Below, piece by piece: positions 1 through 30,481 of a stretch of DNA of 52,840 nucleotides; within the stretch, counting starts at the first letter, position 1; each line of letters opens with the position of its first letter. The translations under genes and the position numbers were made by a program. The notes under the pieces were generated by a model. The model made no database searches. It worked only from the letters and a program-made list of their open reading frames with translations, and had not been told where the DNA came from. This DNA comes from Gaiellaceae bacterium (GTDB lineage Bacteria; Actinomycetota; Thermoleophilia; Gaiellales; Gaiellaceae). The stretch lies in contig JBOHAB010000001.1 in the NCBI GenBank assembly GCA_050697655.1, positions 1 to 52,840 on the forward strand, written 5' to 3'.

Positions 1-1
1 T

Positions 2-115
2 CGCGAGCGCGGGCGAGCCCTGCCACACTGGCTCGACCACAACAACCACGCGCGGCCGCACAGCTCGCTCGGAGGCAAGCCCCCGATCAGCCGCGTTCAC
101 AACGTCTGTGGGTAG
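2..115 (+). mobile_element. 3' end of a DDE (rve integrase-core) transposase gene, IS481/IS3-like; the element runs off the left edge
   Basis: The frame starting at nt 2 reads RERGRALPHWLDHNNHARPHSSLGGKPPISRVHNVCG, then TAG at 113-115. The WL-x-x-N-x-x-RPH-x-x-LGG-x-PP-x-SR tail is the conserved C-terminus of rve-type IS transposases. It is edge-truncated and so absent from the ORF track. Confidence 0.6.
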
Positions 116-1636: not shown

Positions 1637-1669
1637 GCACCTTCTCGTCGTCGACGATCGGCTCTCGTC

Positions 1670-2662: not shown

Positions 2663-2897
2663 CCGTGCAGTTCGTCCTCAGGGCGTTCGCGGTCGGCCCG
2701 CCTGAACACCACGAGGGAGCGGCTCGGCTCCTCGTATGAAGGCGTCTCTCCCGAGGGCGGCCGAGCGACGCCCACCGGCGCGAGGAACGGTCGCAAGCAG
2801 CTCCGCCGGCCGTACGGCGACAGGCTGCTCCTCGTTATCCGTCCGACATTCACACGCGCCCGATGAACCGTTGGGCCGCTCGTGATTTGATTGCGCT

Positions 2898-3419
2898 ATG
2901 GATGCCCGCGCCCAATCCTTCGATGCGATATTCCGTAGAGACGTCCGGTACATGGTGCCTGTGTTCCAGCGTCGCTACGCGTGGGAGCGAGACCGGCAAT
3001 GGGATCCGTTCTGGCGGGATGTGCTCGAAGTCGTCGAGGCCTACGTACATGCCGCACGATCAAGTCAGACGGCGCCGCGCGGCGACGAGCTGCCTGTCCA
3101 CTTTCTCGGTGCCATTGTTGTCAAGCTCATGCCTTTCGGCGCCGGTCAGCTCGAACTCCGAGAAGTCATCGACGGGCAACAACGCCTCACCACGATCCAG
3201 CTGCTCATCGCGGCGGCGTCATCTGCCCTCGCGAACCTTGGTGCTTCCGAGCAGGCTGAGGTCTTGCGCGATCTCATTGAGAACCGCCCATATCTCACGA
3301 AGGGCCAGCCCGACGCCGTCCTGACAACTTGCAGTCGTCAGGACTCGCAGCCAACCCCGTCGCCCGTAGCCATCGAAGCCAACGGGATCCGGCGGACGCA
3401 CCGCGAAAGTTGCGTGTAG
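2898..3419 (+). pseudogene. N-terminal fragment of a GmrSD-type DUF262 (ParB-like NTPase) / DUF1524 protein
   Basis: It carries FRRDVRYMVPVFQRRYAWERDRQWDPFWRDV and the DUF262 signature VIDGQQRLTTIQLL. Family-like sequence ends near LIENRPYLTKGQPD (~3330). The rest, up to the stop at 3419, is non-homologous-looking filler. The second half of the DUF262 domain is missing here. Confidence 0.7.
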
Positions 3420-3474
3420 TGGTTGGTCGTCGTTGACGTGATCAGCGCTGCGAGTTATCTCGTTGTGAATGCGA

Positions 3475-4057
3475 TTACTCGTCAAGGATCGTTACACGAG
3501 GCCAGCGCTCAAATGGGCGCTTTCGCTCGAGCCGCTGGCGAAAGTCCTCGGCGGTCACGCGACGCGGGTTTCGCCGCAACACCATCCCGAGCAGGTCGCC
3601 AAGCCCGAGAGGCGCAACGACACGCAGTGAGTCGTCCGGCAGCAGGCGCACGGCGACGGCCGTCGCCGTCTCCGGCCACGTTGCGACGGCGTCTTCGATC
3701 GAGGTGAGAGGCTCTACGGGATAACCGAACTTGGCCGTGTACCACGTGTGGACGGCCGCCTGATTCTTGGCGTCCCAGTCGATCGTAGGCATCCGCGTCC
3801 GCAGGGCGGCTTGGACGTCGTAGTCTTCGTTCGGGCGCGAGATCGTCCTGGTCGAAGAAGGCGACGTCCACATCCTTCACGTCCCTGGGTTCGGCGAAGC
3901 CGTGGAGACGATCCCAGACGATGTCGCGAATGACACCGGCGCCTACTACCCACTCCGGCGGGTCGACGTCACGGACGGCTCGGAGCACCGAGACGAACCA
4001 GTCACTGGTGCGGAGGATCGACGCCAGCTGCCGTTCCTGATCAGCGGCCGGATCCAT
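3475..4057 (-). pseudogene. Nucleotidyltransferase-family protein (DUF925 / NTP_transf_6-like) interrupted by a frameshift
   Basis: The N-part comes from ORF 3509..4057 (…WVVGAGVIRDIVWDRLHGF…VKDVDVAFFDQDD). The C-part comes from ORF 3475..3873 (SRPNEDYDVQAAL…DWDAKNQAAVHTWY…WPETATAVAVRL…APLGLGDLL…RRNP). The two frames meet at about 3840. Confidence 0.6.
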
Positions 4058-4211
4058 GGCCTGACCGTAGCGGCGGTATCAGCGGTTTCGCCTCCGCCCG
4101 AATGCGTCCACGATCACTGGCAACCGGGCGTCGCCGATCATCCCGCGGTCGCCTAGTACCCACTCCGCTCGACCATGCAGCGCTAAACCGGTCGGCTTAG
4201 TCTCTGCGTCG

Positions 4212-4448
4212 ATGACGTACTCGGTGACGCTCGAGCACGGAACCGACGGGAGTTACCTTGCGTGGGTCCACGAGCTGCCCGGCTGTTTCGTGCGCGGAGA
4301 GACACGTGGCGACGTTGACGAGCGGCTGCCCGCGGCGATCCAGCATTCCACGACTGGCTGCGGATGCTGGGAGTTCGCCCGCCCAACGTCCGCCCACGGC
4401 ACTGAGATCGTCGCGTTCCCTTCCTCGTCGAGGTGCCACGCAGGGTGA
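4212..4448 (+). CDS. HicB-like (UPF0150) antitoxin-fold protein, possibly frameshifted near 4341
   Basis: YSVTLEHGTDGSYLAWVHELPGCFVRGETRGDVDERLPAAI is a typical HicB/UPF0150 N-terminus. After 4341 an alternative frame reads AFHDWLRMLGVRPPNVRPRH and stops at 4403-4405. That looks more native than the listed tail. Confidence 0.55.
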   Translation: MTYSVTLEHGTDGSYLAWVHELPGCFVRGETRGDVDERLPAAIQHSTTGCGCWEFARPTSAHGTEIVAFPSSSRCHAG

Positions 4449-4618
4449 AGGACGCGGACGCACGCGGCGAACCCAGCTGGGACGAGTGAGAGCACCGATT
4501 CGCCGAAGATCGCCAGGACTTCGACGAGCCAATCCCCCGCACTCACGTCATGCGCCGGTGTTAGTTGCGTGACCCTCTTCCTGCGACCGCCCCACATGAT
4601 CGCGCCCGAGTCTTCCAT
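4379..4618 (-). pseudogene. N-terminal fragment of a hypothetical protein, truncated where it collides with the HicB-like gene
   Basis: ORF 4253..4618 reads DWLVEVLAIFGESVLSLVPAGFAACVRVLHPAWHLDEEGNATISVPWADVGRA and looks protein-like. The remainder is low-complexity and overlaps the convergent HicB-like ORF. Confidence 0.3.
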
Positions 4619-4750
4619 GCATACAAGGCAGGCCGAGGTGCTACCGGCGTGGAGTATGGGATCAAGTCAGAGGTGGGAGCACAACCGCCGCGCACTGGTG
4701 GCCGCGCTTGAGTTCATCGTCCAGTCACGCTGCGCCACCTAAATAGACGG

Positions 4751-5221
4751 TCAATGCTCGACGCCCTCAGGGAAGCGGTCACGGACTAGGTTGAGTTCGA
4801 TGCCGTGCTCGAGCCACGCCTTCAGTCCGGCGAGCACGAGGGTGAAGCCACCGGTCGCCTCGATCGCCTGCTTCGCGATCGATTCCTGATCGCCCGTGAA
4901 GCCGGTGTTGGTGACGGTGATGAAGGTGTTGTCGCCTCTAGGCGCGAACGCCCATGCAACCGCGGTCTGGCCACCTCCACGGTAGGCAGGCCACCGCATC
5001 ACGATCCGCTCGTTCTCCTCAATCAGATCGACGTCGACGTCGACGGACTGGTCGTACATCTCCCACTCCCAGCGCACGCGCTTACCGGGTTTGAGCTTCC
5101 CGCTGCTGCGCGTGAACCAGAACTTGGTCGTGACTTCCGGATCAACGACAGCCCTGAACACCTCGGCCACCGGCCGGCGAATAAGCATTCCTGCCTCAGC
5201 CGCAGTAACGTCTTCATTCAT
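4751..5221 (-). CDS. SRPBCC / AHSA1 (Activator of Hsp90 ATPase homolog 1-like) family protein
   Basis: MNEDVTAAEAGMLIRRPVAEVFRAVVDPEVTTKFWFTRSSG…VDVDLIEENERIVMRWP. The ATG at 5221 is preceded by AGGAGG, so the longer listed ORF (to 5317) is probably upstream read-through. Confidence 0.75.
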   Translation of the reverse strand: MNEDVTAAEAGMLIRRPVAEVFRAVVDPEVTTKFWFTRSSGKLKPGKRVRWEWEMYDQSVDVDVDLIEENERIVMRWPAYRGGGQTAVAWAFAPRGDNTFITVTNTGFTGDQESIAKQAIEATGGFTLVLAGLKAWLEHGIELNLVRDRFPEGVEH

Positions 5222-5409
5222 CGCCGTGTACCTCCTGATCGGAGTTTCATCGCGTCGTGGGGCCTGAGCCTCGCGCTTGGCGGCCTCGATGCCTCGCTCG
5301 AGGAACCTCGCGACCATCCGCCGGCCGACCTCGGGATCGAGTGCGAAACGCTCGGCATCGCGCTCGTGCCAGTCGGCGACCGGCTCGTAGGCCTTCTCCT
5401 CGGGGCAGG

Positions 5410-5525
5410 GTGGCCGTAGTGGTGGTCGATCATCGCGATGCTCGAACCCGTGAAGCGCGAGACCGCGAAGACGGGGATCCCGGCGCGTCCACGCGTGAAT
5501 GGCCCCACGCGAGGCAGGTCAGCTG
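5410..5525 (-). pseudogene. Remnant of the C-terminus of a tyrosine recombinase / phage-type integrase
   Basis: ORF 5218..5631 contains …RAGIPVFAVSRFTGSSIAMIDHHYGH. This matches the conserved integrase C-terminal box (…aG.p…vs..lGHss..mt..hYgH) that carries the catalytic Tyr. Only ~35-40 codons survive, and the frame decays on both sides. Confidence 0.55.
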
Positions 5526-5531
5526 CATTCG

Positions 5532-6416
5532 CTATCGCCGACGGCTTGTCTGGCCGAGAACGTGCGCGAGGAGCGCCGAGTAGTCGTGTTCGCCCCAGCC
5601 GGAGTCGGCTGCATCGCGCAGCCAGGCGCACGAAGCCGTTGCAAGCCGCATGTCGACGTTCGTGAGAGCGGCCGCTCGGACGATGAGCTCTGCATCCTTA
5701 CGGGCCAGGGAGAGCGTGAACCGGGCTGGATAGCGACCGCTCTCGATCATGGTCCAGCGCCGTGCCGCCTGGGCGGCGAGCGGAGTCCGTTCGAGGACAG
5801 ACTTCGTCGCTTCCCGCGACAACCCGAGCCCGTCTGCGAGGGCGATCGCCTCGGCCAGTACGGCCAGAGCGCCGATGAGCGTCGAGTTCGCGACCAGCTT
5901 CGCCGACGCCCCTGTGCCGAGAGGACCGACGTGCTCGACCGTTCCGAGCGTGGAGAGCAGAGGTCGATGCTTCGACATGAGCCACTCCGGTCCGCCGACG
6001 AACATGACGAGAGTGCCCGCCTCAGCCTCGCGAATGCTGCCCAGCACTGGAGCATCGAGCACGTGTACGCCTCGAGGCACGTTGACGCTCAGCCGGGCGA
6101 TTCCCGCCGGTCCGACGGTGGACAGTTCGATGATCGTCGTTGCGTTGCGCACTCCGGCCACGAGTCCCGTCGGGCCGTCAGTTACCGCCTCCAGGGCGGC
6201 CTCGTTCTCGACCATCGTCAGTACGACTTCCGCGTTGGCTGCTGCTGCCGCCGGAGTGTCTGCCACGGCAGCACCGAGCGCCTTCAGGGGAGTGGCCTTT
6301 TCCCGCGACCGATTCCAGACGACGACAGCATGCCCGGTGCTGAGCAGGCGAGTGGCGATACGGCTGCCCATCGCACCAAGGCCGATCACGGCGACGGGTG
6401 CTGCGTCGGCGGGCAT
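5532..6416 (-). CDS. NAD(P)-dependent oxidoreductase, 3-hydroxyisobutyrate/6-phosphogluconate dehydrogenase family
   Basis: It has an N-terminal Rossmann motif VAVIGLGAMGSRIATRLLSTGHAVVVWNRS and family-typical length. The likely start is the ATG at 6416 (MPADAAP…). Confidence 0.8.
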   Translation of the reverse strand: MPADAAPVAVIGLGAMGSRIATRLLSTGHAVVVWNRSREKATPLKALGAAVADTPAAAAANAEVVLTMVENEAALEAVTDGPTGLVAGVRNATTIIELSTVGPAGIARLSVNVPRGVHVLDAPVLGSIREAEAGTLVMFVGGPEWLMSKHRPLLSTLGTVEHVGPLGTGASAKLVANSTLIGALAVLAEAIALADGLGLSREATKSVLERTPLAAQAARRWTMIESGRYPARFTLSLARKDAELIVRAAALTNVDMRLATASCAWLRDAADSGWGEHDYSALLAHVLGQTSRRR

Positions 6417-6946
6417 CACGCAGCGTCGTTCGCGTCGGACCTCAGCCAAGCCAGAACCTCGGCGCCGTGCGTCTCCGGCTTGGCCACGGGATGGAAGATC
6501 TTCGTGATGCTGCCGTCGCTGATGATCGTCAGGCGCTCGTAGAAGCGCCGGCCGGCGACCTCGAGTGTCGGTAGCCCAAGCGCCCCGGCCAGGAGGAACC
6601 CGGGGTCGCTGAGCAGTGGGTACGGGATCGACGCACGAGTGGCGAACCGGCGCTGCTGCTCAAGCACCTGTGAGCTCAGCCCCATGACGCGCGCGCCAAG
6701 CTTGCTCAGCTCCCGTTCGTGGTCACGGAACGAACAAGCCTCGGCGGTACACCCGCGCGCTCCCGGGATGCGATCCCAGCCGCGAGGGTCCCGCTCGCCC
6801 GCGACCGCCGTTCGCGGGTAGACGTAGAGGACGACGTATCTGCCGGGCCTCTCCGTTAGGTGCACGACACCTCGGGAGGACGGAAATTGCAGCGCCGGAA
6901 GCGGCTCGCCTTCGAGCCTGGCCGCCAAAGAAGGGCCCACCCGCAC
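6416..6946 (-). CDS. Peroxiredoxin (Bcp / AhpC-TSA family)
   Basis: It carries the motif PGARGCTAEACSFRD (peroxidatic Cys context) plus IPYPLLSDPG. The upstream part of listed ORF 6416..7138 overlaps the MocR gene and is Arg/Ser junk. The likely start is GTG at 6946 or 6940. Confidence 0.7.
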   Translation of the reverse strand: MRVGPSLAARLEGEPLPALQFPSSRGVVHLTERPGRYVVLYVYPRTAVAGERDPRGWDRIPGARGCTAEACSFRDHERELSKLGARVMGLSSQVLEQQRRFATRASIPYPLLSDPGFLLAGALGLPTLEVAGRRFYERLTIISDGSITKIFHPVAKPETHGAEVLAWLRSDANDAA

Positions 6947-7001
6947 GAACCTAGGACTCGGCCCGGCGCCAATCAAGCGCGCATTGGCGGCGCCGCTGAG
7001 G

Positions 7002-8507
7002 CTAGACCACGACGTCGAGCCGGCTCGAGTCGATGGAGGCCAGCGCCCGCCGATAGGCCTTCCACGCGCCTGCCAGCCGCCGGATCGCCTCCTCGAGCAC
7101 GACCTCCTCGTGATCGAAAGACAAGCGAACGAACTCATCGAACCGTCCCGTGGTGGACATCACCGAACCCGGTGCGATGGAGACGCCGCGGCGATGCGCG
7201 ATCTGCGCGAGCTCTGTCGAGCTCCCATCCGGGAGGCGCACCCAGAGCGAGAGACCACCTTGCGGTCGCCGCCACTCCCATTCAGGGAGATACCGCCCGA
7301 GGAGCTCCTCTAGGAGCGTCAAGCGTGTCTCGAGCTCGCGGCAACGGCACGCGCGGACGTACTCGGAACGAACGAGCAGATTCACAGCTATCGCCTGGCT
7401 CGGAAGGGAAGTACCGAGATCCGCCACCGCCTTGAGTCGTCCGAGTTGGACGATGGTAGGCCGTGGCGCCCGTACCCAGCCCACCCGCAGGCCGGCCCAA
7501 CAGATCTTGCTGAAAGAGCCGATCGAGACGATCGTCGTGTTGCGCGCGTAGGCTGCGAGCGGCCGTGGAGGCTCGGGACCCAGCACGAGCTCGGCGAGTG
7601 TGTCGTCCTCGACGATCGGAAGCTCGGTCGCTCGCGCGAACCGGACCAGCTCGCGTCTTGCCTGATCCGGCATGACCGAGCCCGTGGGATTGTGGAACGT
7701 GGGCATCAGGTAGACGGCACTGACGCGATTCTCGACGACGGTTCGCTCAAGCAGTTCCACGTCAGCGTCAGACCGGCAAACCGGGACGGGCAGAATCCGG
7801 GCCCCGACCGTTCGGAAGACGTCGATTGCGCCGGGGTAGGTGGGGTCCTCCATCACCACTACGCCTCGGTGGCTCGCGCAGCTTCGGGCGAACAGGCTGA
7901 TCCCTTGCTGGGCACCGCCGGTGACGAGGATCTCCTCGCCGCTGGATGGAAGACCATGCGCCGTCAGGTGATCAGCGATCGCCTGACGGAGTGGTGGATA
8001 GCCGAGCGGAAAATAGCCGTGCGAGAGAGTCAGTTCGCGGATGTCAACTGTGGCGGCCGCTTCCGCCAGCGCCTCCCTGATTGCCGGGCTCGGCGGTGCC
8101 GAGCTCCCGAGGAGGTCGATCGTGTCCGGCGACGGTTCGCCTAGACGGCGAAAGAGGAGGTTCCGCTGGAGCGAGGTGGCGAGCGCGGCCGCACGCGCAT
8201 CGACACCGACCGTGTCGCCGCGTATGACGTGCGTTCCTCGCCCCTGCCGACGGTCGACGAGCCCTCTGCGCTGGAGTAGCTCGTAGGCGGCAGAGACCGT
8301 CCCTCTCGCAATGCCGAGCTCCGTCGCGAGGACGCGCTCCGGGGGAAGACGGGTGCCAGCGGGCAAATCGTCGCGCTCGACGGCGTCTGCGAGCGATGTC
8401 CCGAGCCGTTCATGGAGGGAGCCGTCACCCTCGTCCCAGCCGTCCAGGGCTTGCCAGAGATCGAGCGAAAGAGCCCTGCCGAGTGATGCTCGACTGCCTT
8501 TGCGCAT
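7002..8507 (-). CDS. MocR/GntR-family regulator with a fold-type I aminotransferase-like domain; PdxR-like by context
   Basis: It has an N-terminal wHTH (LPPERVLATELGIARGTVSAAYELLQRRGLVDRRQGRGTHV) and a C-terminal AAT-like domain with SFSKICWAGLRVGW. It is divergent from pdxS. The start is taken as ATG 8507 (MRKGSRAS). Confidence 0.8.
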   Translation of the reverse strand: MRKGSRASLGRALSLDLWQALDGWDEGDGSLHERLGTSLADAVERDDLPAGTRLPPERVLATELGIARGTVSAAYELLQRRGLVDRRQGRGTHVIRGDTVGVDARAAALATSLQRNLLFRRLGEPSPDTIDLLGSSAPPSPAIREALAEAAATVDIRELTLSHGYFPLGYPPLRQAIADHLTAHGLPSSGEEILVTGGAQQGISLFARSCASHRGVVVMEDPTYPGAIDVFRTVGARILPVPVCRSDADVELLERTVVENRVSAVYLMPTFHNPTGSVMPDQARRELVRFARATELPIVEDDTLAELVLGPEPPRPLAAYARNTTIVSIGSFSKICWAGLRVGWVRAPRPTIVQLGRLKAVADLGTSLPSQAIAVNLLVRSEYVRACRCRELETRLTLLEELLGRYLPEWEWRRPQGGLSLWVRLPDGSSTELAQIAHRRGVSIAPGSVMSTTGRFDEFVRLSFDHEEVVLEEAIRRLAGAWKAYRRALASIDSSRLDVVV

Positions 8508-8660
8508 TGGCCTCAGCGTTGCCACGAGAGCGCTCCATTGGCATGTACGCCCCGGGCTTCCAATGCATGAGACCAAACGCTCTTCAAACGACTAGAGTAT
8601 CTCGCCACGCTACGAGGGTACCAATGCCCGCTTGATTGGCCTTGCTGCATTGGCTCAATG
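8505..8660. promoter_or_regulatory. Divergent PdxR-like/pdxS control region with a repeated CATTGG/CCAATG hexamer (candidate MocR operator set)
   Basis: CATTGG occurs at 8505-8510, 8536-8541 and 8648-8653. GATTGG occurs at 8634-8639. The reverse complement CCAATG occurs at 8560-8565 and 8621-8626. A TAGAGT -10-like box lies at 8593-8598. Confidence 0.45.
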
Positions 8661-8670
8661 TCGCACTCGT

Positions 8671-9585
8671 ATGAGCGGAGCACAAGGTGGGGGCTCAGGT
8701 GGTGCCCTGACCGGCACGATGCGGGTGAAGAGCGGTCTCGCCGAGATGCTCAAGGGCGGCGTGATCATGGACGTCGTCAACGCCGAGCAGGCGAAGATCG
8801 CCGAGGACGCCGGGGCCGTCGCCGTGATGGCGCTCGAGCGCGTCCCGGCCGACATCCGTCGCGACGGCGATGTCTCCCGCATGTCCGACCCGGCGATGGT
8901 CGCCGAGATCCAGGAGGCGGTCACGATCCCCGTGATGGCCAAGTGCCGGATCGGCCACGTCGTCGAGGCGCAGATCCTGCAGGCGCTCGAGGTCGACTAC
9001 ATCGACGAGTCCGAAGTGCTCACCCCGGCCGATGTCGCGCACCACGTGGACAAGTGGGCGTTCGAGATCCCGTTCGTGTGCGGCGCGACCAACCTCGGCG
9101 AGGCGCTCCGGCGGATCAGCGAGGGCGCGGCCATGATCCGGACGAAGGGCGAGGCCGGCACCGGCGACGTCGTCAACGCCGTCACGCACATGCGCGCCGT
9201 CTTCGGAGGCATCCGGCGGCTCGGCGCGCTGCGCAGCGAGGAGCTCTACGCCGAGGCGAAGGAGCTGCGCGCGCCATACGAGCTCGTCCGCTGGGTGGCC
9301 GAGAACGGTCGGCTGCCGGTCGTCACGTTCACCGCCGGCGGGATCGCGACCCCTGCCGACGCCGCTCTCTGCATGCAGCTCGGTGCGGATGGCGTCTTCG
9401 TCGGCTCCGGGATCTTCAAGTCCGGCGACCCGGCGCTGCGCGCGAAGGCGATCGTCGAGGCGACGACGCACTACCGCGACGCCGAGATCCTCGCCCGCGT
9501 CTCGGCGGGCCTCGGCGAGCCGATGGTCGGCATCTCGGCGGCCTCCCTTCTCGAGCCCGAGCGGCTCGAGGTCCGGGGCTGGTAG
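8671..9585 (+). CDS. pdxS: Pyridoxal 5'-phosphate synthase, lyase subunit PdxS
   Basis: The sequence is near-canonical: [44 protein letters not shown]…[11 protein letters not shown]…[10 protein letters not shown]…TKGEAGTG…[10 protein letters not shown]…[11 protein letters not shown]. The start is taken at ATG 8671. Confidence 0.95.
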
Positions 9586-9590
9586 CACGC

Positions 9591-10481
9591 ATGAGCGAAC
9601 TGCCTTGCACTCGCTTCAGGCTCGGAGTCGTCGCGGACATCCACCTGGCGCCGGCGGGCACGCCCGCAACGTCATGGCACGGACCCATCCACGGGGCCCT
9701 GATGCGCAGCCGACTGGGCGCGGCGCTCGCTCGCCTCGACGACGAGACGGTCGGTGCGATCGTGCTCCTCGGTGACCTCATCGAGCATGCAGATCACGAG
9801 TCGCTGGACATCGTGCTTCGCGGCTGCGCCGCCCTGGGCCGTCCGATCTTCGTCGCCTCAGGCAATCACGACCTCGGAGCGGATGAATCGATGCTCGCAC
9901 GTGCCTGTGAGGACGCGGGCGGCTCGGTTGAGCTCCTCAGCTCGCGGGGCGTGCCGCTCGGCAGAGGCCTCCGCATCGCCGGGCAGCCGATCGCACACGC
10001 GGCAGGCGAGGTCAGGGCCTCGGCTCTGCCCGATACCGCGAGCTGGAATGGAGAGACGGCCATCTGGCTCAGCCACTACCCGCCTCTTTCGAGGCGACGG
10101 CAGGCGGTTGCGGCAGGAGTCCTCCACTCAGGCGACCTGACGAACTCGAACGCAGTCGCAGAAGCCCTGCGCGAGCGACGCGCTCCGACCATCGCAGTCC
10201 ACGGCCATCTGCACTTCCGCGACGCCACCTCGGACGGGCACTTGCTCCAGATCGGCACGCCCGCTCTCGCCGAGGCGCCGCACGGGCTCGTCGTCGTCGA
10301 CATCCAACTCGGCAACGAGCTTGTCGTGGAGCTGCGAACGCACGCACTAGAGGCACGAGCAGCGATGACAGCGCGCGCGCCTGCATTCGCTCCCGCTGAC
10401 AGCCGCTGGTCGTATCGCGGCGGCACCTGGTGGTCCGGGTCAGCCGCCGACCACGCCCTCTCAGCCGACGTCGCGAGATGA
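9591..10481 (+). CDS. Metallophosphoesterase (calcineurin-like phosphoesterase)
   Basis: It has the motifs GVVADIHL, LLGDLIEH, ASGNHD and VHGHLH. It is the C-terminal part of listed ORF 8658..10481. The ATG at 9591 lies 5 nt after the pdxS stop. Confidence 0.7.
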   Translation: MSELPCTRFRLGVVADIHLAPAGTPATSWHGPIHGALMRSRLGAALARLDDETVGAIVLLGDLIEHADHESLDIVLRGCAALGRPIFVASGNHDLGADESMLARACEDAGGSVELLSSRGVPLGRGLRIAGQPIAHAAGEVRASALPDTASWNGETAIWLSHYPPLSRRRQAVAAGVLHSGDLTNSNAVAEALRERRAPTIAVHGHLHFRDATSDGHLLQIGTPALAEAPHGLVVVDIQLGNELVVELRTHALEARAAMTARAPAFAPADSRWSYRGGTWWSGSAADHALSADVAR

Positions 10482-11347
10482 ATGTCGACGCGACGGGAGA
10501 GCGGCGGCCGCTCGCGCACGCGGTGGCGCCTGCCTTCGACGGGCTCATCCTCGATCTCGACGGTGTCGTGTGGCTCGGTCTGGTTCCCGTGCCCGGATCG
10601 GTCGACGCGATTGCCGGCCTCCGCGAGTCCGGCGTGCAGATCGTCTTCCTGACGAACGATCCGCGTAGCTCGCGTGCCGACTATGCCGCTCGGTTGACGC
10701 AGCTCGGCATCCCAGCCGAGTCGATCCAGATCGTCACGTCCGGCAGCGCCCTCGCCCGGTACGTCGGGGAGCGCGAAGGGCCGGGTGCTCACGTATTCGC
10801 CATCGGATCGCCGATGTTCAAGGCCGAGCTGGCTGCAAGCGGCCTCAGCCTCTGCGAGGGTCTCGCGGCGCGCGCAGCCAGGGTCGTCGCAGTCGGCGGT
10901 CACGACAGTTTCGACTACGACGAGCTTCGCACCGCCGCGCAAGCCTTGCGACGGGGCGCGACCCTCTACGCCGCAGGGCGCGACGCGGCGTTTCCGATGC
11001 CCGACGGCCCCTGGCCAGGTACGGGCTCGATCGTCGCCGCGGTCGAAGTGGCGGGCGGCACGCGTGCGATCACCGTCGGGAAGCCCGAGCCCTTCGTCTT
11101 CGACCTTGCTCGATCAGCTCTTCGCAAATGCCACCGCATTGCAGTCGTCGGTGACAGCCTCGAGTCCGACATCGTCGGCGGGAAACACGCCGGTCTCGCG
11201 ACCGTCCTCGTCCTGACCGGCACCTGCACGGCCGATGATGTCGCGGTTTCCCCCGTCCAACCAGACATCGTGCTCCCCGATCTCGCCGCCCTGCTCCCCA
11301 AACCGTCCGCGACGCCCGCACCCACGAAACAAGAGCCATGCAGCTGA
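10478..11347 (+). CDS. HAD-superfamily subfamily IIA hydrolase (NagD-like phosphatase)
   Basis: It has LILDLDGVVWLG, FLTNDPRSS, GKPEP and VGDSLESDIVGG. ATG 10478 overlaps the preceding stop (ATGA). Confidence 0.75.
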   Translation: MNVDATGERRPLAHAVAPAFDGLILDLDGVVWLGLVPVPGSVDAIAGLRESGVQIVFLTNDPRSSRADYAARLTQLGIPAESIQIVTSGSALARYVGEREGPGAHVFAIGSPMFKAELAASGLSLCEGLAARAARVVAVGGHDSFDYDELRTAAQALRRGATLYAAGRDAAFPMPDGPWPGTGSIVAAVEVAGGTRAITVGKPEPFVFDLARSALRKCHRIAVVGDSLESDIVGGKHAGLATVLVLTGTCTADDVAVSPVQPDIVLPDLAALLPKPSATPAPTKQEPCS

Positions 11348-12483
11348 GCCCAGATGGGCTGAACGCCTGGCTGAACGAGCATCACTTCGCTGCTCCCCCG
11401 ATCGAATTCGACCTGGGCGCGAGCACTGGGCCGATCTGGACGGTGCGGGACCTGCTCGCGCGCGGCAAGCCGGACGAACAACGTCGGCTGCTGGACCTGC
11501 CGATCTCGTATGCCCACAGCCGCGGAAGCCACGCGCTCAGAACCGCCATTGCCGCCCACGCCTCAGTGGAGCCGGACCAAGTGCAAGTGACGACGGGTGG
11601 AGCCGAAGCGCTCTGGATCATCTTCCTGCTAGCAGCGGAGCCGTCCGCGAACGTCGTCGTGCCCGAGCGCCCGAGCTTCCCCACATTCAACGAGGCGCCG
11701 CGCGCCCTCGGCATGGAGGTTCGCAACTATCGGCTTCGGCGCAAGGACGACTATGACCTCGACGTCGGCGAAATCCGGGGGCTCATCGACGGGAACACGA
11801 AGCTCCTGGTGGTCAACAGACCGCAGAATCCGACGGGAGCCGTCGTCACCGACTCGCAGCTCGCCGAGCTCCATCGGCTGACCGTCGAGCGGGGCGTGCA
11901 GCTCGTCGTCGACGAGGTGTTCCACCCGATCTACCACGGGCCGCCGGTCACGTCAGCCGCACGCCTTCCCGGAACAACCGTCGTCGGCGACTTCTCGAAA
12001 GCCCTGTGCCTCAGCGGCTTGCGACTCGGCTGGATCATCGAGCGAGACTCCGAGCGGATCGAACGCTATGAGCACGCTCGCTCCTACTTCACCGTCTCCA
12101 GCTCGCCGGTCAGCGAAGCGCTCGGCGTACTGGCACTCCGCCAAAGCGACCAAATCTACGCGCGCGCCCGAAGCGTCACGCGAAAAAACTTGGCCCTGCT
12201 GGGCGAGTTCATCGACCGGCACTCGGAACAGCTCGCCTGGGTCCGGCCCGCGGGTGGCTGCACGGCGTTCCCTTGGCTCGTCTCGGGCCGTAGCTCGCGA
12301 GACTTCTGCCGCCAAGCGGCAGCCGCAGGCGTGCTGCTCGCACCCGGCGACCTGTTCGGTGCGCCGGAGCACTTCCGCATCGGCTTCGGGGCTTGCGACC
12401 GGTTCAGCGAAGGCATCGAGCGGTTGTCGGAACTCGTGACGAACTCCGCGTCCTTGGGTCGAGCAAGTCACGCGGTGCCGTAA
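11338..12483 (+). CDS. Class I/II PLP-dependent aminotransferase
   Basis: It has NRPQNPTGAV, VVDEVF and the lysine box FSKALCLSGLRLGWII. It overlaps the previous gene by 10 nt. Confidence 0.8.
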   Translation: MQLSPDGLNAWLNEHHFAAPPIEFDLGASTGPIWTVRDLLARGKPDEQRRLLDLPISYAHSRGSHALRTAIAAHASVEPDQVQVTTGGAEALWIIFLLAAEPSANVVVPERPSFPTFNEAPRALGMEVRNYRLRRKDDYDLDVGEIRGLIDGNTKLLVVNRPQNPTGAVVTDSQLAELHRLTVERGVQLVVDEVFHPIYHGPPVTSAARLPGTTVVGDFSKALCLSGLRLGWIIERDSERIERYEHARSYFTVSSSPVSEALGVLALRQSDQIYARARSVTRKNLALLGEFIDRHSEQLAWVRPAGGCTAFPWLVSGRSSRDFCRQAAAAGVLLAPGDLFGAPEHFRIGFGACDRFSEGIERLSELVTNSASLGRASHAVP

Positions 12484-12572
12484 TCGGGTCCCGGAAAACA
12501 GCGGCTGCGCCTTCGCGCATCCGGACGATCGACCGGCGCGGCCCCGGCGAGCTCACACCGTAGAAGCACGAC

Positions 12573-13436
12573 ATGACGCCGCTCGCCCTCGCGCTCGTCC
12601 TCGCTGCGGCTACAGGTCACGCCACCTGGAACATGCTCCTCAAGCGTGCCGGCGGCGGGCCAGTCTTTCTCTGGCTGACCTTCGCGCTGGGGCTGGCCCT
12701 CTACGCTCCGCTAGCCGCGGGTCTCGTCCTGATCGAGCGGCCGCCCATCGGTCTTCGCGAGCTGACGTTCATGCTCGGCAGCGGCGGCCTCCACCTCGGG
12801 TACTTCTTGCTTCTGGAGCGCGGCTACCGTGCCGGTGACCTCTCGCTCGTCTACCCACTGGCGCGCGGCACCGGTCCTGCCCTGGCCACCGTCGCCGCAA
12901 TTGTCTTCTTCGCCGAGCGCCCGTCGCCGCTCGCTCTCTTCGGCGCGATCCTCGTCGCGTGCGGACTCCTCGTCTTGAGCGGGCCGCGCCGCCTCGTCGA
13001 CCTCGACGCTCCGCGCGCCGCGGCCGCGGTCGGCTACGCCCTGGCGACCGGTTCCTTCATCGCCGCTTACACGCTCTGGGATGCCCATGCCGTCGCCGTC
13101 GTGGCGATCTCTCCCCTGCTGCTGGAGTGGGCTTCGAACGCGGTACGAACGGCGCTGCTTGCGCCGCTCGTGGCTCGCCGCCCGGGCGACGTGGCTTCAA
13201 TCTGGCGCGAGCACCGGACGGAGGTGCTGGGCGTCGCCGCCCTCTCGCCGCTCGCGTACATCCTCGTGCTGTCGGCGCTCGTCTCAACGCCCGTCAGCTA
13301 CGTCTCGCCCGCGCGCGAGCTCAGCATCGTCATCGGTGTCGCGATGGGCTCGTGGCTGCTCGGGGAGGCGGCCGCACGACGTCTCCCCGCGGCGGCAATG
13401 ATCGTCGTCGGCGTCACCGCCCTCGCACTCGGGTGA
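12573..13436 (+). CDS. EamA/DMT-family membrane transporter
   Basis: A 287-aa, highly hydrophobic protein with ~10 predicted helices and a duplicated EamA-like architecture. Confidence 0.7.
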   Translation: MTPLALALVLAAATGHATWNMLLKRAGGGPVFLWLTFALGLALYAPLAAGLVLIERPPIGLRELTFMLGSGGLHLGYFLLLERGYRAGDLSLVYPLARGTGPALATVAAIVFFAERPSPLALFGAILVACGLLVLSGPRRLVDLDAPRAAAAVGYALATGSFIAAYTLWDAHAVAVVAISPLLLEWASNAVRTALLAPLVARRPGDVASIWREHRTEVLGVAALSPLAYILVLSALVSTPVSYVSPARELSIVIGVAMGSWLLGEAAARRLPAAAMIVVGVTALALG

Positions 13437-13613
13437 TCTCTTCCCCGACGCCGTGCTCGGCGAAGGCCGCCGGGCTCGGTCGGAGCCGGACTCGGGTCAA
13501 TACGCGGCCGGGAACGTGGATGACCGACAGTCAGCGCCCACCCGGGCTCTATCACGACGTCATCTCACCACGGTTCGCGGGAGCAGGTGAGGAGCGGCGC
13601 TCAATAAGTAGTT

Positions 13614-13635
13614 TATGGGTGACTGGTCACCCATA
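13614..13635. promoter_or_regulatory. 22-bp perfect palindrome (TATGGGTGAC-TG-GTCACCCATA), candidate TetR operator overlapping a TATAGT -10 box
   Basis: The arms 13614-13623 and 13626-13635 are exact reverse complements. TATAGT at 13634-13639 sits immediately upstream of the TetR start region. Confidence 0.55.
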
Positions 13636-13637
13636 TA

Positions 13638-14258
13638 GTGTTTCGGATAGTGGCAAGGGTTTCAGCGGACACTAAGCAGGTGACCCGGGCGAGGTTGCTC
13701 GTTGCCGCGGCGGAGGAGTTCGGGCGGGTCGGCCTTGCACGGGCCAATGTCGATGCGATCTCGCTCGCGGCAGGTTGCGGCAAGGGCACGATCTACAACT
13801 ACTTCCCCTCCAAGGAGGAACTGTTTCTGGCCGTGGTCGGGGAGGCATCGGCGCAGGCTGCCGCGTCCGGCTCGGCACCGGACGCGGCCCCGGCCAGGGA
13901 ACGGCTCGCGGCGACGCTCGCCGGATTCTGCGCCTGGGCGGGCGAGCACGACCCCTTCGCCCGGGTGCTCGTACGAGAGTGCCTAATGGGCACGCCCGAG
14001 CTGCAGGGACGCGTGGCCAGGGCTGAAGAGCCGCTCCTGGCAGCGATCGAAGCGATCTTGCACGAAGGAGCGCGACGCGGGGAGCTTCGAGACGACATGC
14101 CGGCCGAACTTCTTGCCCTCGCGATCGCGGGCCTCACCGATCTCGCGCTCGCCCAGCATTGGGCCTCCGGCGGCACGAGCCCTGCGCTCGCCGACATCCC
14201 CGAGCTCGTGCTCGGCCTGCTGCTCGGGCCACCGTCGCCGGCCACAGCCCGGGCGTGA
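13638..14258 (+). CDS. TetR-family transcriptional regulator
   Basis: It has the HTH TRARLLVAAAEEFGRVGLARANVDAISLAAGCGKGTIYNYFPSKEELF. If TATAGT (13634-13639) is the -10, the real start is more likely GTG 13650 (near-leaderless). Confidence 0.85.
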   Translation: MFRIVARVSADTKQVTRARLLVAAAEEFGRVGLARANVDAISLAAGCGKGTIYNYFPSKEELFLAVVGEASAQAAASGSAPDAAPARERLAATLAGFCAWAGEHDPFARVLVRECLMGTPELQGRVARAEEPLLAAIEAILHEGARRGELRDDMPAELLALAIAGLTDLALAQHWASGGTSPALADIPELVLGLLLGPPSPATARA

Positions 14259-15877
14259 CTGCCGACACGGACGTGCTCGTCGTCGGCGCCGGCCCGACCG
14301 GCCTCACCCTCGCCGCGCAGCTCAGCGCCTACGGCGTCACGGCTCGGATCGTCGATCGCCAGCTCGACCGCGTGCACGAATCGCGCGCACTGGTCATGCA
14401 GCCGCGCTCGCTCGAGGTCCTGCGCGGGCTCGGCATCGCCCAGAGGTTGGTCGAGCGCGGAAACGACTCCGTCCAGCTGCGCGTGCACTTCGGCAACCGC
14501 GTCGTCGGCACGCGGCTCTTCGATATCGGGCTCGAGGACACGGCGTACCCGTTCCTGCTCTTCATCTCGCAAGCAGAGACGGAGGCGATCCTGAACGAGC
14601 ATCTCGCCGCGCGGGGCATGCCGGTCGAGCGTGGGGTCGAGCTGATTGCCTTCTCGACGAGCGCTGAGGAGATCACCTGCACGCTTCGGCACGCGGATGG
14701 AAGGATCGAGCGTGCGCGCTGCCGCTATCTCGTCGGCTGCGACGGCGCCCACAGCACCGTTCGCGAGGGAGCGGGGATCGCGTTCGAGGGCGGTACCTAC
14801 CCACAGACGTTCGTGCTCGCCGACCTCGAGGTCGACGGCGAGCTCGAGCCTGGCGCCGGGCACGCCTTCCTCGGCGACCGAGGCATCCTGCTCTTCTTTC
14901 CGCTCGGGGTCCCGGCGACCTGGCGGATCGTGGGGATGCGCCCGAGCAAGGACGCCCACGACCTCGGGCAAGAGACGGAGCAGCTCTCGCTCGAAGAACT
15001 GCAACGGATCTGCGACGGCTTCACCGGCGGCACGCTGAGCCTGCGCGATCCGGTCTGGCTGACCTACTTCCGGCTCCACCACCGCCAGGCCGCCCGCTAC
15101 CGGACCGGGCGCACCTTCCTCGCCGGCGACGCAGCCCACGTCCACAGCCCCGCCGGCGCCCAAGGCATGAACACCGGCATCCAGGACGCCTGGAACCTCG
15201 GCTGGAAACTCGCGCTCGTCGCGCGTGGAATCGCCGATCCGGCGCTGCTCGACTCCTACGATCCGGAGCGCCTCCCCGTCGGCCGCTTCGTGCTCCGCTT
15301 CACCGACCGCGCCTCGACGATCGCGACGTCCGACAGCGCCGTCGTCCGCCTGACGCGCACCCGGATCGCGCCACTGCTGCTACCCCCACTCCTCCGCTTC
15401 CGCAAGGGACGGACGTTCGGCTTCCGGACGATCGCGCAGCTCGCCATCAGCTACCGGAACAGCCCCGCCGTTGAGGAGGATCCGAGCGCGCCACGAATCG
15501 GTCCCAAAGCCGGTGACCGGCTCCCGGACTCCCGCATCATCTCGGGCGGTCGAGAATGCTGGCTCCACGACGCTCTCGCAGCGCCCGCCTTCCACCTGCT
15601 CCTCTGCGGGCCCGTTGCCGACTGGCCCGCAGACCAGCTCGTCGCCATGCAAGAACGATACGGCGACCTGCTGGCCGTACACCGGCTAACGCGCGAGCCC
15701 GGCCCTGGGATCCTGCTCGACCCGAGCGGCAAGACGCTCGCCCGCCTCGGCGCCCAGCAGGCCGTGCAGTACCTCGTCCGCCCCGACGGCCACATCGGCT
15801 TCCGGTCCGGTGGACGCGACACGCTCGCCACAGCGCGCTATCTCGACCGCTGGCTACCCCGCTTCGGCCGGCGATGA
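14255..15877 (+). CDS. FAD-dependent aromatic-ring monooxygenase/hydroxylase (PheA/TfdB-like)
   Basis: It has DVLVVGAGPTGLTLA (GxGxxG), GCDGAHSTVRE and LAGDAAHVHSPAGAQGMNTGIQDA. GTG 14255 overlaps the TetR stop (GTGA). Confidence 0.85.
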   Translation: MTADTDVLVVGAGPTGLTLAAQLSAYGVTARIVDRQLDRVHESRALVMQPRSLEVLRGLGIAQRLVERGNDSVQLRVHFGNRVVGTRLFDIGLEDTAYPFLLFISQAETEAILNEHLAARGMPVERGVELIAFSTSAEEITCTLRHADGRIERARCRYLVGCDGAHSTVREGAGIAFEGGTYPQTFVLADLEVDGELEPGAGHAFLGDRGILLFFPLGVPATWRIVGMRPSKDAHDLGQETEQLSLEELQRICDGFTGGTLSLRDPVWLTYFRLHHRQAARYRTGRTFLAGDAAHVHSPAGAQGMNTGIQDAWNLGWKLALVARGIADPALLDSYDPERLPVGRFVLRFTDRASTIATSDSAVVRLTRTRIAPLLLPPLLRFRKGRTFGFRTIAQLAISYRNSPAVEEDPSAPRIGPKAGDRLPDSRIISGGRECWLHDALAAPAFHLLLCGPVADWPADQLVAMQERYGDLLAVHRLTREPGPGILLDPSGKTLARLGAQQAVQYLVRPDGHIGFRSGGRDTLATARYLDRWLPRFGRR

Positions 15878-15880
15878 CTC

Positions 15881-15910
15881 GCCGTAGCGAACTAGGGCCT
15901 GCGCTACGGC
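15881..15910 (+). terminator. Stem-loop after the monooxygenase stop (GCCGTAGCG-12 nt-CGCTACGGC), no U-tract
   Basis: Perfect 9-bp inverted repeat at 15881-15889 / 15902-15910. It is bracketed by a 15-nt direct repeat CGGCGATGACTCGCC (15869-15883 and 15907-15921). Confidence 0.3.
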
Positions 15911-15970
15911 GATGACTCGCCTGCGGGGTGCACAAACTCGATTTCCCTGCAAGACAGCCACTCAGCCTTT

Positions 15971-17431
15971 ATGGCTGACGTCACCGCGGCACGGGACGGA
16001 TCACGCCGAAAAACTCAGAGACTGACCGTGTTCAAGGTGTGGCCGACCAAGCACGATCGAGAGGCGTTTCGCGCGGTGATGAGTGGAGACGGTGTTGGGA
16101 GCTCGCTCGAGAAACATCGCGTCGTTCACGCGTTTCGCTTCTTCGAGGAAGCCGTCTCGGAGTGGGGTTCCGCGATACCGGAGGCTGAGCGCGGTCTCCA
16201 TTTCCAAGCATTCGAAGCCGTTGTTCGATCACAACTGCACATCGTGTGGATTGACCTCGACGGTCGCGACAACGCCCAGGTCATCTTCGAGACGCTCAAC
16301 GATCGAGGTGCGCCACTGAACGCAATCGACCTGGTCAAGAACCTCGTCTTTCAGCACCAGTACGGCGGCGACCAGGCCGAAGAGCTGTACGAACAGCACT
16401 GGTCGTGGATAGAGGACGACTGGTGGCAGCGGAAGATTCGGCTTGGCCGGCTTGACCGCGTCCAAGCGGACGTCTTCCTGCAGCACTGGCTCCAGATGGA
16501 ACTCGGCCGAGAAGTCAATTCCGACTTCCTGTTCAAGTCCTTCGCGCAGATGCTCGAGGCCGAGGCGCCGGATGTGAAGGCGCTGATCCCGCAGTTCGCT
16601 GAGGACGCCCGCCTCTATCGCTCATTCTCGTCGCAGCTCCAGGGATCGGCCAGACAAGAGTTCTTTTCGCGCTTGAACGTCCTGAACACGACCACGCCGT
16701 TCCCGCTGGTGCTCTTCCTGTTCAAGCAACCACAAGACGTCTTGAACTCTGAGGACGTCGACAGATGCCTGGAGACGATCGAGGACTACCTCGTGCGTCG
16801 GATGCTTTGGCGTGGAACCGCCCAGGGATACAACCGACTGTTCACCGAGCTCGTGAAGGAGGTCAAGCAGGCTCCGCGGGACGCGCCGGAGATCATCGCG
16901 CGACAGCTCGCTGACGCGGAGGGGAGCTCGCGACTGTGGCCACGCGACTCCGACTTGTTTCCCGTCCTGAGCGAAAGCCGAGCATATGGGTCGGAAGCCA
17001 TCGCGAGAAACCGACTTCTCGACGTTCTCTGGGAGGTGGAGCGACGCCGCCTCCGCTCCGCCAAGCACGAGCAGCTCGACAGGCCGCCGGGTTTGCAGAT
17101 CGAGCACGTGATGCCGCAGTCGTGGAAGAAGAACTGGCCCCTGCCAGACGTCACGGGAGAATCTGCTGAGTTGCTTGAGGGCCAGCGGAACGTCGCGATC
17201 AACCGGCTCGGAAACCTCACACTTGTGACCGGCGCACTGAATCCCGCGCTCTCCAACGCGGCTTGGCCGACAAAGCGCCCGGGTCTTGCTCAACATAGCC
17301 TCCTCGCGATGAATCAGCAGCTGGTCGAGATGTACCCCGAGACGTTCGACGAGGCCGCGATAGCCGCTTGCAGTAACGAGTTAGCGAGACACGTGCTGGC
17401 GGTATGGCCGGGACCGCCGTCTGACCCCTAG
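15971..17431 (+). pseudogene. C-terminal two-thirds of a GmrSD-type protein: second half of DUF262 plus the DUF1524 His-Me-finger nuclease domain
   Basis: The frame is open from 15896. It has TVFKVWPTKHDREAF and NAQVIFETLNDRGAPLNAIDLVKNLVF (second conserved DUF262 block). It also has the DUF1524 motifs LQIEHVMPQSW and NRLGNLTLVTGALNPALSN. It lacks the DGQQR N-terminal block, which sits at 2898-3330. Confidence 0.75.
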
Positions 17432-17722
17432 ATTCCTCGCGTCGCTCACCTGTGCGCAACCGTGCCCCGCGGGCCAGCGGACTGGCGACAAAGTTCATCG
17501 GGGAGGCTCAGAGCTCTTCGGGGATGGATTCGCGGGCGTCGGCCCCGTCGTGCTACGCGTTTCTCGCGCCGGGGAGCCTACTGGCGAATCGCCCGGCGAA
17601 GCCAAGGACGAGGACGGCTCGTCCCTGCCACCACCATGACACCACCAGGACGCGACAAGGCGGCCTGCACGACCTTGGCGAACCGCATGGTTGAGCCAAA
17701 TCGGCTCAGCCAGAGACGCGCT

Positions 17723-18499
17723 CTACATGCCCATGGCGTGGTAGCCGGAATCCACGTAAAGGATCGTGCCGGTGATGTTCGCAGCCTCGTCCGAGAGGAG
17801 GAACGCGCCCGCGACTCCGACGTCGGCGGCGTCGATGGGGCGGTGGAGCGGTGCGCGCTCCTCGACGATCGCCTCCATCGTCGGGAAGCCGGCGATCGAG
17901 CGCGCGGCCAGCGTCCGCACCGGGCCGGCGGAGACGGCGTTCACGCGGATGTTCTTCTGCCCGAGGTCCCAGGCGAGGTAGCGAACCGACGAGTCGAGCG
18001 TCGCCTTGGCGACGCCCATGACGTTGTAGTGCGGAACGGCCCGCTCGCCGCCGAGGTAGGTCATGGTCATGATCGCGCCGCCGCCGGCGGCCTCCATCAG
18101 CGGTTCCGCGAGCCGCGCGCAGGCGACGAGCGAGTAGGCGGAGACGTCGAGCGCGAGCCAGAAGCGGTCGCGCGGCGTGTCCGTGAAGCGGCCCTCGAGA
18201 TCGCGGGCGTCGGCGAACGCGACCGAGTGGACGAGTAGGTCGAGCCTACCGTCGAAGGCCTCGGCGACCTCGGCGAAGAGGCGGTCGAGGTCCTCGTCGG
18301 AGCGGACGTCGCAGGACGTGATCAGAGGCGAGCCGACGGACTCGGCCAGCCCGCGCACGTTCTTCTCGATGCGCTCGCCCTGGAAGGTGAAGGCGAGCTG
18401 GGCGCCGCCGTCGGCCAGCTCCTGGGCGATCGCCCAGGCGATCGACCGTCGGTTGGCGACGCCGAGCACGAGCCCTTTCTTGCCTTCGAAGCGACTCAC
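17723..18499 (-). CDS. fabI: Enoyl-[acyl-carrier-protein] reductase (NADH), FabI
   Basis: It has KKGLVLGVANRRSIAWAIAQEL, LLVHSVAFA, the Y-x6-K context YNVMGVAKATLDS, and VNAVSAGPVRTLAA. Confidence 0.9.
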   Translation of the reverse strand: MSRFEGKKGLVLGVANRRSIAWAIAQELADGGAQLAFTFQGERIEKNVRGLAESVGSPLITSCDVRSDEDLDRLFAEVAEAFDGRLDLLVHSVAFADARDLEGRFTDTPRDRFWLALDVSAYSLVACARLAEPLMEAAGGGAIMTMTYLGGERAVPHYNVMGVAKATLDSSVRYLAWDLGQKNIRVNAVSAGPVRTLAARSIAGFPTMEAIVEERAPLHRPIDAADVGVAGAFLLSDEAANITGTILYVDSGYHAMGM

Positions 18500-30420: not shown

Positions 30421-30481
30421 CACGGGCAAACCGAAGACACGCCGACCGGCGTAGTTTCGGCGAGAGGAGAGGGGGAAAGCT

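Follow-up and report, generated by a model that had tools for sequence, protein, structure and literature searches.

A GmrSD-family gene, of the type that encodes a DUF262 domain followed by a DUF1524 nuclease domain in one polypeptide, lies in two separate pieces near the left end of a 52,840-nucleotide stretch of DNA from a Gaiellaceae bacterium (GenBank assembly GCA_050697655.1, contig JBOHAB010000001.1, positions 1 to 52,840; referred to below as the window). We propose, with a probability of about 0.85, that a single insertion of 12,706 bp split this gene cleanly, with duplication of the four bases CCGT. Both halves lie on the + strand in N-to-C order, their breakpoints are complementary to the base and a 4-bp duplication marks the junctions, so that one insertion would explain all three features. 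An earlier note on the window, made from its letters without database searches, had described one DUF262/DUF1524 gene in two same-strand halves in N-to-C order, and this is borne out by complementary Pfam coverage and by a residue-exact alignment.

Two complementary halves of one gene

The first open reading frame (ORF) of the pair, 2898–3419 (173 amino acids), matches positions 7–111 of the 199-position Pfam profile GmrSD_N (PF03235); it includes the (I/V)(I/V)DGQQRLTT motif by which the GmrS/DUF262 domain is defined (PMC4619093). The second frame is open from 15896, and its ORF from the ATG at 15971 to 17431 (486 amino acids) matches GmrSD_N positions 85–199 as well as GmrSD_C (PF07510; E=1.3e-20). 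Together the PF03235 matches of the two fragments span profile positions 7–199. When 2898–3319 is joined to 16030–17431 the product is 1824 nucleotides long, with 607 codons and no internal stop. Used as a query, the joined sequence retrieved more than 2000 homologues, the best intact ones of which are 604–626 amino acids long and cover 99–100% of the query at 73–79% identity; those of ∼608 amino acids match it end to end (100% coverage) at 79% identity. Residues E499, H500, P503, N536 and N545 are invariant across 50 homologues. Neither a single polypeptide with both domains complete nor adjacent GmrS and GmrD genes is present at the locus, since DUF262 is cut at residue 141/142 and the two parts lie 12,706 bp apart. 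The gene is apparently a disrupted member of the GmrSD (DUF262–DUF1524) family and not a functional one.

The breakpoint was placed with the closest relative of the gene, found in JGI metagenome 3300082261 (contig L001; 92–94% amino acid identity), as the DNA reference. The 5′ fragment is 94% identical to this copy in amino acids and 91.5% in nucleotides, the 3′ fragment is 92% identical in amino acids, and the DNA similarity between the window and L001 is limited to the ORF itself. Window positions 2887–3319 align with L001 9990–10422, and positions 16026–16883 with L001 10419–11275; the two alignments share exactly 4 bp, CCGT. When both junctions are aligned with uninterrupted genes (L001 and two others), these three give the ancestral sequence as ...CAGCCCGACGCCGT|GTTCAAGG..., the left junction reads ...GACGCCGT|CCTGACAACTTGCAG... 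and the right junction reads ...CAGAGACTGACCGT|GTTCAAGG...; no identity beyond CCGT was found in this alignment on either side of the junctions. The protein alignment agrees. The N-terminal fragment keeps to the family through ...LIENRPYLTKGQPDAV (...LTKGQPDAV) and diverges after it, and the C-terminal fragment is unrelated up to ...RRKTQRLT and family-like from VFKVWPTKHDR to its end. No residue is lost or duplicated at the cut, and the overlap is limited to one valine codon.

These alignments sharpen the earlier picture. The two halves stand, with the left one ending at 3319 rather than near 3330, the family sequence resuming at 16026/16030 rather than at 15896, and an interval of 12,706 bp. 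The segment 15896–16025, taken at first for the start of the resumed GmrSD sequence, belongs with its ATG at 15971 to the insert and happens to be open in frame. A weak similarity had also been suggested between 3327–3356 and 15932–15964, and read as a possible degraded duplicated target or attachment (att) segment. Its Smith–Waterman score is 20, a value that 95 of 1000 shuffles attained, as did 461 of 1000 segment pairs drawn at random from the window; the alignment is thus at chance level, and the 4-bp CCGT is left as the sole junction feature. The presence of CCGT at both junctions could reflect a target-site duplication, microhomology or the fill-in of a staggered break. By our estimate, a 4-bp junction identity would arise by chance in ∼1–2% of clean insertions in DNA of such composition.

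A rearrangement could also have parted the halves, either through two successive inversions or through translocation of the 3′ fragment to its place beside fabI. The region is a rearrangement-prone accessory zone, and in L001 the 3′ 500 bp of the gene are inverted. Against this, strand and order of both halves are kept here, no inverted repeats link the junctions, and a multi-step route would need a coincidence to yield breakpoints in base-exact agreement, four duplicated bases and no lost sequence. Such a route is less parsimonious, and we consider it very unlikely.

The arrangement is also supported by other assemblies. A metagenome-assembled genome (MAG) contig at NCBI, CDIAAS010000230.1 (20.7 kb), is collinear with window 1594–22306 and covers both junctions at 99.95% identity, with ∼10 single-nucleotide polymorphisms (SNPs) and no indels, and two Logan contigs from SRR27067760 cover one junction each at 100% identity. 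The window is itself a metagenome-type contig, and the two Logan contigs, being identical to it, may stem from the same reads. A mis-assembly is nevertheless barely credible, because the MAG contig that contains both junctions was assembled independently and differs by ∼10 SNPs, and because exactly complementary junctions that share only 4 bp cannot come from repeat-induced chimerism.

Position of the break and fate of the gene

The effect of the break was judged from intact homologues. In the predicted structure of one of them (P0001; mean predicted local distance difference test score, pLDDT, 88; predicted template modelling score, pTM, 0.79), residue 141/142 lies in a short strand between the DGQQR strand–helix (86–113) and later strands and helices of the same N-terminal domain (210–232). 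The nucleotide-binding and DGQQR motifs would remain on a 173-residue stub, and the rest of DUF262 with the His-Me nuclease would remain on the 486-residue ORF, whose start codon is borrowed from the insert. In BrxU, point mutations in DGQQR (Q101A, R102A) or in the HNH motif abolish both DNA cleavage and phage resistance (PMC8565348). Because the break inside the DUF262 fold leaves DGQQR on one piece and the remainder of the domain with the nuclease on the other, the gene should be dead; neither product is expected to be active, and the gene is almost certainly inactive. The earlier note's view that the gene was cut inside one domain by a ∼12.7-kb insertion and so inactivated is supported to this extent, the break in DUF262 being shown and the loss of activity predicted by comparison.

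The two ORFs could in principle be the separately expressed subunits of a working split enzyme. In favour of this, GmrS and GmrD occur naturally as two-gene systems (PMC4619093), each ORF is open, and the C-terminal fragment has gained an ATG. Natural splits, however, fall between DUF262 and DUF1524 (PMC4619093), whereas the break here falls inside DUF262, near profile position 111 of 199 and between two conserved GmrS regions; the halves are 12.7 kb apart with oppositely oriented genes between them; and no close homologue inspected (identity at least 62%) shares the split. We regard a working split enzyme as extremely unlikely.

Four shorter homologues that resemble the C-terminal fragment (P0038, P0040, P0042 and P0043; 476–485 amino acids) might have pointed to a recurrent split at the same site. 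All four start 9–19 residues before the breakpoint and span it. The gene of P0038 (L171, 1443–3214) has a 1-nucleotide frameshift 14 codons upstream, and that of P0042 (L170, 1906–3363) is an intact ORF without a canonical start, for which the gene caller picked an internal TTG. A recurrent split was ruled out on these grounds, the short proteins of L171 and L170, the two contigs inspected of the four, being gene-calling artefacts. The earlier note had said that overlapping fragments, relatives with the same split, or stand-alone proteins of the C-terminal type would speak against a disruption; the fragments proved complementary, none of the inspected relatives is split, and the 476–485-residue proteins run across the breakpoint. 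Caution with database entries is warranted, because the 486-residue product has been deposited as a DUF262/DUF1524 protein and several ‘short’ homologues are gene-calling artefacts.

The copy in L001 (10001–12010; 92% amino acid identity) is also a pseudogene, with other lesions: the frame is shifted near codon 383 and the last ∼500 bp are inverted, with no inverted repeats found at the ends of the inversion. It adjoins a helix-turn-helix gene and a 168-residue integrase fragment. The gene has thus been lost independently in its two closest known copies. Intact homologues reside in unrelated defence islands with type I restriction–modification, AbiE and methylase–helicase clusters.

The interruption in the window is recent. 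The ratio of nonsynonymous to synonymous substitution rates (dN/dS) between window and L001 is 0.08 for the N-terminal part and 0.10 for most of the C-terminal part (dS ∼0.37), which compares with a baseline of 0.08–0.13 between pairs of intact genes, and the fragments contain no secondary lesions. With dN/dS at the level of intact genes and no further damage, nearly all of the divergence must have arisen under purifying selection and the split is recent, so that the locus is best viewed as a recently formed pseudogene.

Before its interruption the gene would have resembled the GmrSD and BrxU type IV enzymes, in which a ParB-like NTPase domain (DUF262, with DGQQR) at the N-terminus is likewise followed by a DUF1524 His-Me nuclease at the C-terminus. 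It differs from them in being interrupted inside DUF262, in its low identity to characterised members (13–17% in fold alignments) and in its nuclease motif, EHVMPQ here and DHIYP in BrxU. A Foldseek search with the P0001 model found the phosphorothioate-sensing DUF262 nucleases DndI (9jfl; E=2e-14, TM-score 0.65) and SspE (1e-12) as the best structural matches, followed by BrxU (7p9m/7p9k; 2e-6), and the PADLOC matches were to the models for a type IV methyl-directed restriction enzyme (mREase_IV), HEC-06 and SspE. Unlike DndI and SspE, neither the window gene nor the inspected intact homologues have dnd or ssp modification genes beside them; the gene thus has the look of an enzyme that works alone, and not of a phosphorothioate-system effector.

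Content and origin of the inserted DNA

The inserted block is absent from all intact homologues and from L001. The Pfam families of its larger genes were taken from precomputed calls on identical contigs, and its small ORFs were scanned directly with Pfam and NCBIfam (Table 1). Ten intact genes occupy 5532–15877, in agreement with the intact cargo described earlier. Of the decayed genes reported on the left side, the frameshifted nucleotidyltransferase is confirmed as a PF06042 pseudogene with one frameshift; its repaired product (194 amino acids) covers 97% of homologues of ∼190 amino acids, at a best identity of 63%. The HicB-like gene reached only E=0.14, below threshold. For the supposed integrase remnant (5218–5631), Pfam and NCBIfam searches returned nothing at cut-offs as loose as E=10 or E=1, BLASTP showed no resemblance to the L001 and L005 integrases, and tblastn had no match in plasmids; the assignment is rejected for lack of support.

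Table 1. Coordinates of the interrupted gene, the inserted block and neighbouring features (window positions unless a contig is named).
Feature	Position	Strand	Details
GmrSD-family 5′ fragment	2898..3319	+	codons 1–140 and 2 nt of codon 141; first conserved DUF262 block including VIDGQQRLTT
CCGT, left copy of 4-bp direct duplication	3316..3319		overlap of L001 alignments; junction alignment
Inserted block	3320..16025		12,706 bp; decayed/small genes 3320–5531, intact metabolic genes 5532–15877, ∼150-bp non-coding ends
Read-through tail of N-fragment ORF	3320..3419	+	33 non-GmrSD codons, then stop; family similarity lost after V141
Nucleotidyltransferase (PF06042) pseudogene	3475..4057	-	one frameshift; two overlapping ORFs match profile positions 2–53 and 50–159
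Possible HicB-like antitoxin fragment (weak)	4212..4448	+	Pfam HicB_lk_antitox, E=0.14, residues 3–43 only, below threshold
AHSA1/SRPBCC-family gene, intact	4751..5317	-	Pfam PF08327, E=1.3e-14
NAD-binding beta-hydroxyacid-dehydrogenase-like gene	5532–6416	-	Pfam/NCBIfam; best homologue only 70% identical
Peroxiredoxin	6416–6865	-	Pfam/NCBIfam
PdxR-type GntR/aminotransferase regulator	7002–8507	-	Pfam/NCBIfam
PdxS	8671–9585	+	precomputed Pfam
Metallophosphoesterase	9702–10481	+	precomputed Pfam
HAD hydrolase	10478–11347	+	precomputed Pfam
Aminotransferase	11338–12483	+	precomputed Pfam
EamA transporter	12573–13436	+	precomputed Pfam
TetR	13638–14258	+	precomputed Pfam
FAD monooxygenase	14255–15877	+	precomputed Pfam
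Insert-derived start codon and 18-codon leader	15971..16025	+	fused in frame to 3′ fragment (translation, ORF list)
CCGT, right copy of 4-bp direct duplication	16026..16029		overlap of L001 alignments; junction alignment
GmrSD-family 3′ fragment	16030..17431	+	codons 141–607 and stop; second conserved DUF262 block and DUF1524 His-Me nuclease (EHVMPQ..GNLTLV..N)
Spacer, GmrSD stop to fabI-like stop	17432..17722		element conserved in relatives largely replaced; ∼40-nt motif (17612–17651) recognisable, nhmmer 11 bits
FabI-like enoyl-ACP reductase gene	17723..18499	-	first gene of syntenic core; 3′ end is accessory-region boundary
Further locus of post-fabI element	L098 2238–2448		
Further locus of post-fabI element	L102 4399–4575		

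The composition of the block departs from that of the core. The G+C content at third codon positions (GC3) is 0.91–0.94 in the core genes to the right of 17723 and 0.76–0.87 in the insert genes, PdxS excepted (0.93), and the mean max-frame GC3 is 0.80 in the insert versus 0.87 in the core (Mann–Whitney p=6e-7). The tetranucleotide correlation between insert and core is 0.977, below the minimum of 0.994 among core 10-kb windows. The best database relatives are 63–76% identical for the insert genes, 90–96% for the core genes and 92% for the GmrSD gene. Atypical composition together with only distant relatives marks the insert as horizontally acquired accessory DNA. The earlier term ‘genomic island’ is valid only in the sense of foreign DNA; the foreign origin and the intact metabolic cargo stand, and neither mobility machinery nor att sites were found.

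Several features of individual insert genes were also observed. The TetR and FAD-monooxygenase genes form a two-gene module that recurs in L008, L018 and L084, as pairs 70–76% identical in MAGs of Gaiellaceae and in one labelled Vicinamibacteria; these are the only insert genes found together in other genomes, and no other neighbours are shared. The synteny of the block in GTDB genomes was tried as a clue to the insertion site and was uninformative, as only this pair is conserved, at 73–76% identity. The pdxS gene stands beside pdxR without an adjacent pdxT, and its GC3 (0.93) is core-like compared with 0.76–0.85 in its insert neighbours. A hairpin lies across the stop codon of the FAD monooxygenase (15860–15930; −37.6 kcal/mol, z −2.7); it is built of a 14-nucleotide direct repeat (GGCGATGACTCGCC) around a 6-bp inverted repeat and could be a terminator or a repeat element.

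How the block came to its place was examined through its ends and its coding content. An IS605- or IS91-like element was rejected, since there is no tnpA, tnpB or rolling-circle Rep-type transposase gene and the hairpins at the block ends are not significant, with terminal folds at z −1.2 and −0.9 relative to shuffles. No tRNA or Rfam features were found as att sites. By eye, 12 of 20 positions agree between the GmrSD target and the fabI 3′ end; the block ends carry no complementary att halves, and the match was treated as chance.

A number of points weigh against a simple insertion. No recombinase or transposase was found in the precomputed Pfam calls of the block genes or in the Pfam and NCBIfam scans of its small ORFs, and the insert has neither terminal inverted repeats nor long direct repeats. 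No att direct repeats flank it, CCGT being the only sequence shared. CCGT itself is probably meaningful and suggestive, and is no proof of a target-site duplication or of any mechanism. A search of 5.8 billion clustered proteins found no intact allele at the locus, and no donor of the block was found (the best relatives being 70% identical for the dehydrogenase and 63% for the nucleotidyltransferase). The contig ends 2.9 kb to the left of the gene, which limits the view of the surrounding island, and the inactivity of the gene is deduced from homologues.

The block might instead be a regulated excisable element that keeps the nuclease off until precise excision restores it. Such an element would have a precedent in the skin element and in phage regulatory switches, where likewise a gene is cleanly interrupted in frame and precise removal would restore it. 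In-silico removal of the block with one CCGT copy does restore a perfect 607-codon ORF, and both fragments are undecayed (dN/dS ∼0.09). The predicted junctions are GACGCCGTGTTCAAG / ...CAGCCCGACGCCGTGTTCAAGGTGTGG... for the intact gene after excision and GAGACTGACCGTCCTGACAAC / ...CTCAGAGACTGACCGTCCTGACAACTTGCAG... for the circular block. Here, unlike in those systems, the scans of the block detected no element-encoded recombinase of any type, and the flanking identity is limited to 4 bp with no further att-like similarity. The cargo is metabolic, with no phage or element backbone; an intact allele is missing from the same 5.8 billion clustered proteins; and a recent event accounts equally well for the low dN/dS. 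We therefore judge a regulated switch highly improbable, and retain a single insertion as the preferred explanation.

Accessory DNA beside fabI

The G+C content of the window is high (0.60–0.74) and of the actinobacterial type, and among named organisms the nearest relatives of its genes are MAGs of Solirubrobacterales and Gaiellaceae. In three close relatives obtained from a metagenome scan with the FabI-like protein (L090–L092), one flank of fabI keeps the gene order HDAC–SDR–YjbR–PAP2–LPG-synthase and the other flank has nothing from window 1–17714, the core genes being 90–96% identical. That the block belongs natively next to fabI is thereby ruled out. The left 17.7 kb as a whole has the same low GC3. 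Taken together, these observations place not only the insert but also the GmrSD gene and its left neighbours in accessory DNA, at a variable site 3′ of the fabI-like gene. The 12.7-kb block is accordingly nested within such DNA and did not land as an island in the core chromosome.

A conserved element of ∼200 nucleotides follows directly on the fabI stop codon in related loci, with eight copies in seven fabI loci (fabI 82–93% identical). It consists of strongly conserved sequence blocks with weak RNA-structure support and no Rfam match. In L090 a 32-nucleotide stretch of the fabI 3′ end recurs at a distance of 2.3 kb (6289–6320 and 8624–8655), and in L092 the element (∼210 nucleotides), with a copy of the fabI 3′ end before it, is repeated 5.09 kb away (10769–10982 and 15859–16069). 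The repeats in both contigs bracket unrelated DNA, which is the signature of an integration hotspot, and the fabI 3′ end, at 17432–17741 in the window, looks like one. No second copy of the fabI 3′ end was found on the contig of the window.

An operon at the start of the contig (87–2662, − strand) encodes a TPR protein, a 178-residue protein without a family match and a Toprim/DnaG-like protein. The last matches the PADLOC model ‘RTasDnaG-like’ (DRT) at 2e-13, and may belong to a second defence or mobile-element module beside the GmrSD gene. A phage origin of the left flank was looked for by scanning viral contigs with its primase-like and TPR proteins, without a useful result. Within the core, max-frame GC3 dips to 0.77–0.78 at ∼30000–30600 and 40800–41400, which could mark small foreign patches.

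Discussion

We propose that an intact, single-polypeptide DUF262–DUF1524 gene stood at the fabI-proximal edge of an acquired region and that one insertion event then separated its codons 141 and 142 by 12,706 bp of unrelated foreign DNA and left CCGT duplicated. Several routes of entry may be envisaged, each tentatively: a circular intermediate might have integrated at a 4-bp microhomology or short crossover site, end-joining might have captured the DNA with fill-in of a 4-nucleotide staggered break, or an element might have transposed by means of an enzyme acting in trans.

Insertional inactivation of defence genes has precedents. Insertion sequences (IS) inactivate CRISPR-Cas by inserting into cas genes (PMC10359306), and there, as here, the inserted DNA has a short flanking duplication. 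The insert described here differs in its length of 12.7 kb, its mostly metabolic cargo and its lack of a transposase, inverted repeats or recognisable element ends. In Pseudomonas, loss of the DUF262/DUF1524 gene PFLU4242 removes the fitness cost of incoming plasmids (PMC8544851). Loss of the nuclease in the window was perhaps neutral, or, more speculatively, may have been favoured since such nucleases burden incoming mobile DNA. A further step along this line would be to regard the block as a recombinase-less mobile cassette, moved in trans or integrating as a circle via very short homology, that silenced a type IV restriction gene hostile to the cassette or its vehicle. We hold this to be a long shot; if it were true, the insertion would be an anti-defence act rather than an accident, and possibly reversible.

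A single insertion remains our preferred account, and the case is a well-resolved new instance of a known and ordinary process, the insertional loss of a defence gene. It leaves knowledge of defence systems as such unchanged. What it adds is a base-resolved example of such a loss, in which a recently active GmrSD-family nuclease appears to have been knocked out by captured foreign DNA. The independent losses here and in L001 fit the idea that such nucleases turn over rapidly, and agree with the conflict documented between them and incoming mobile DNA.

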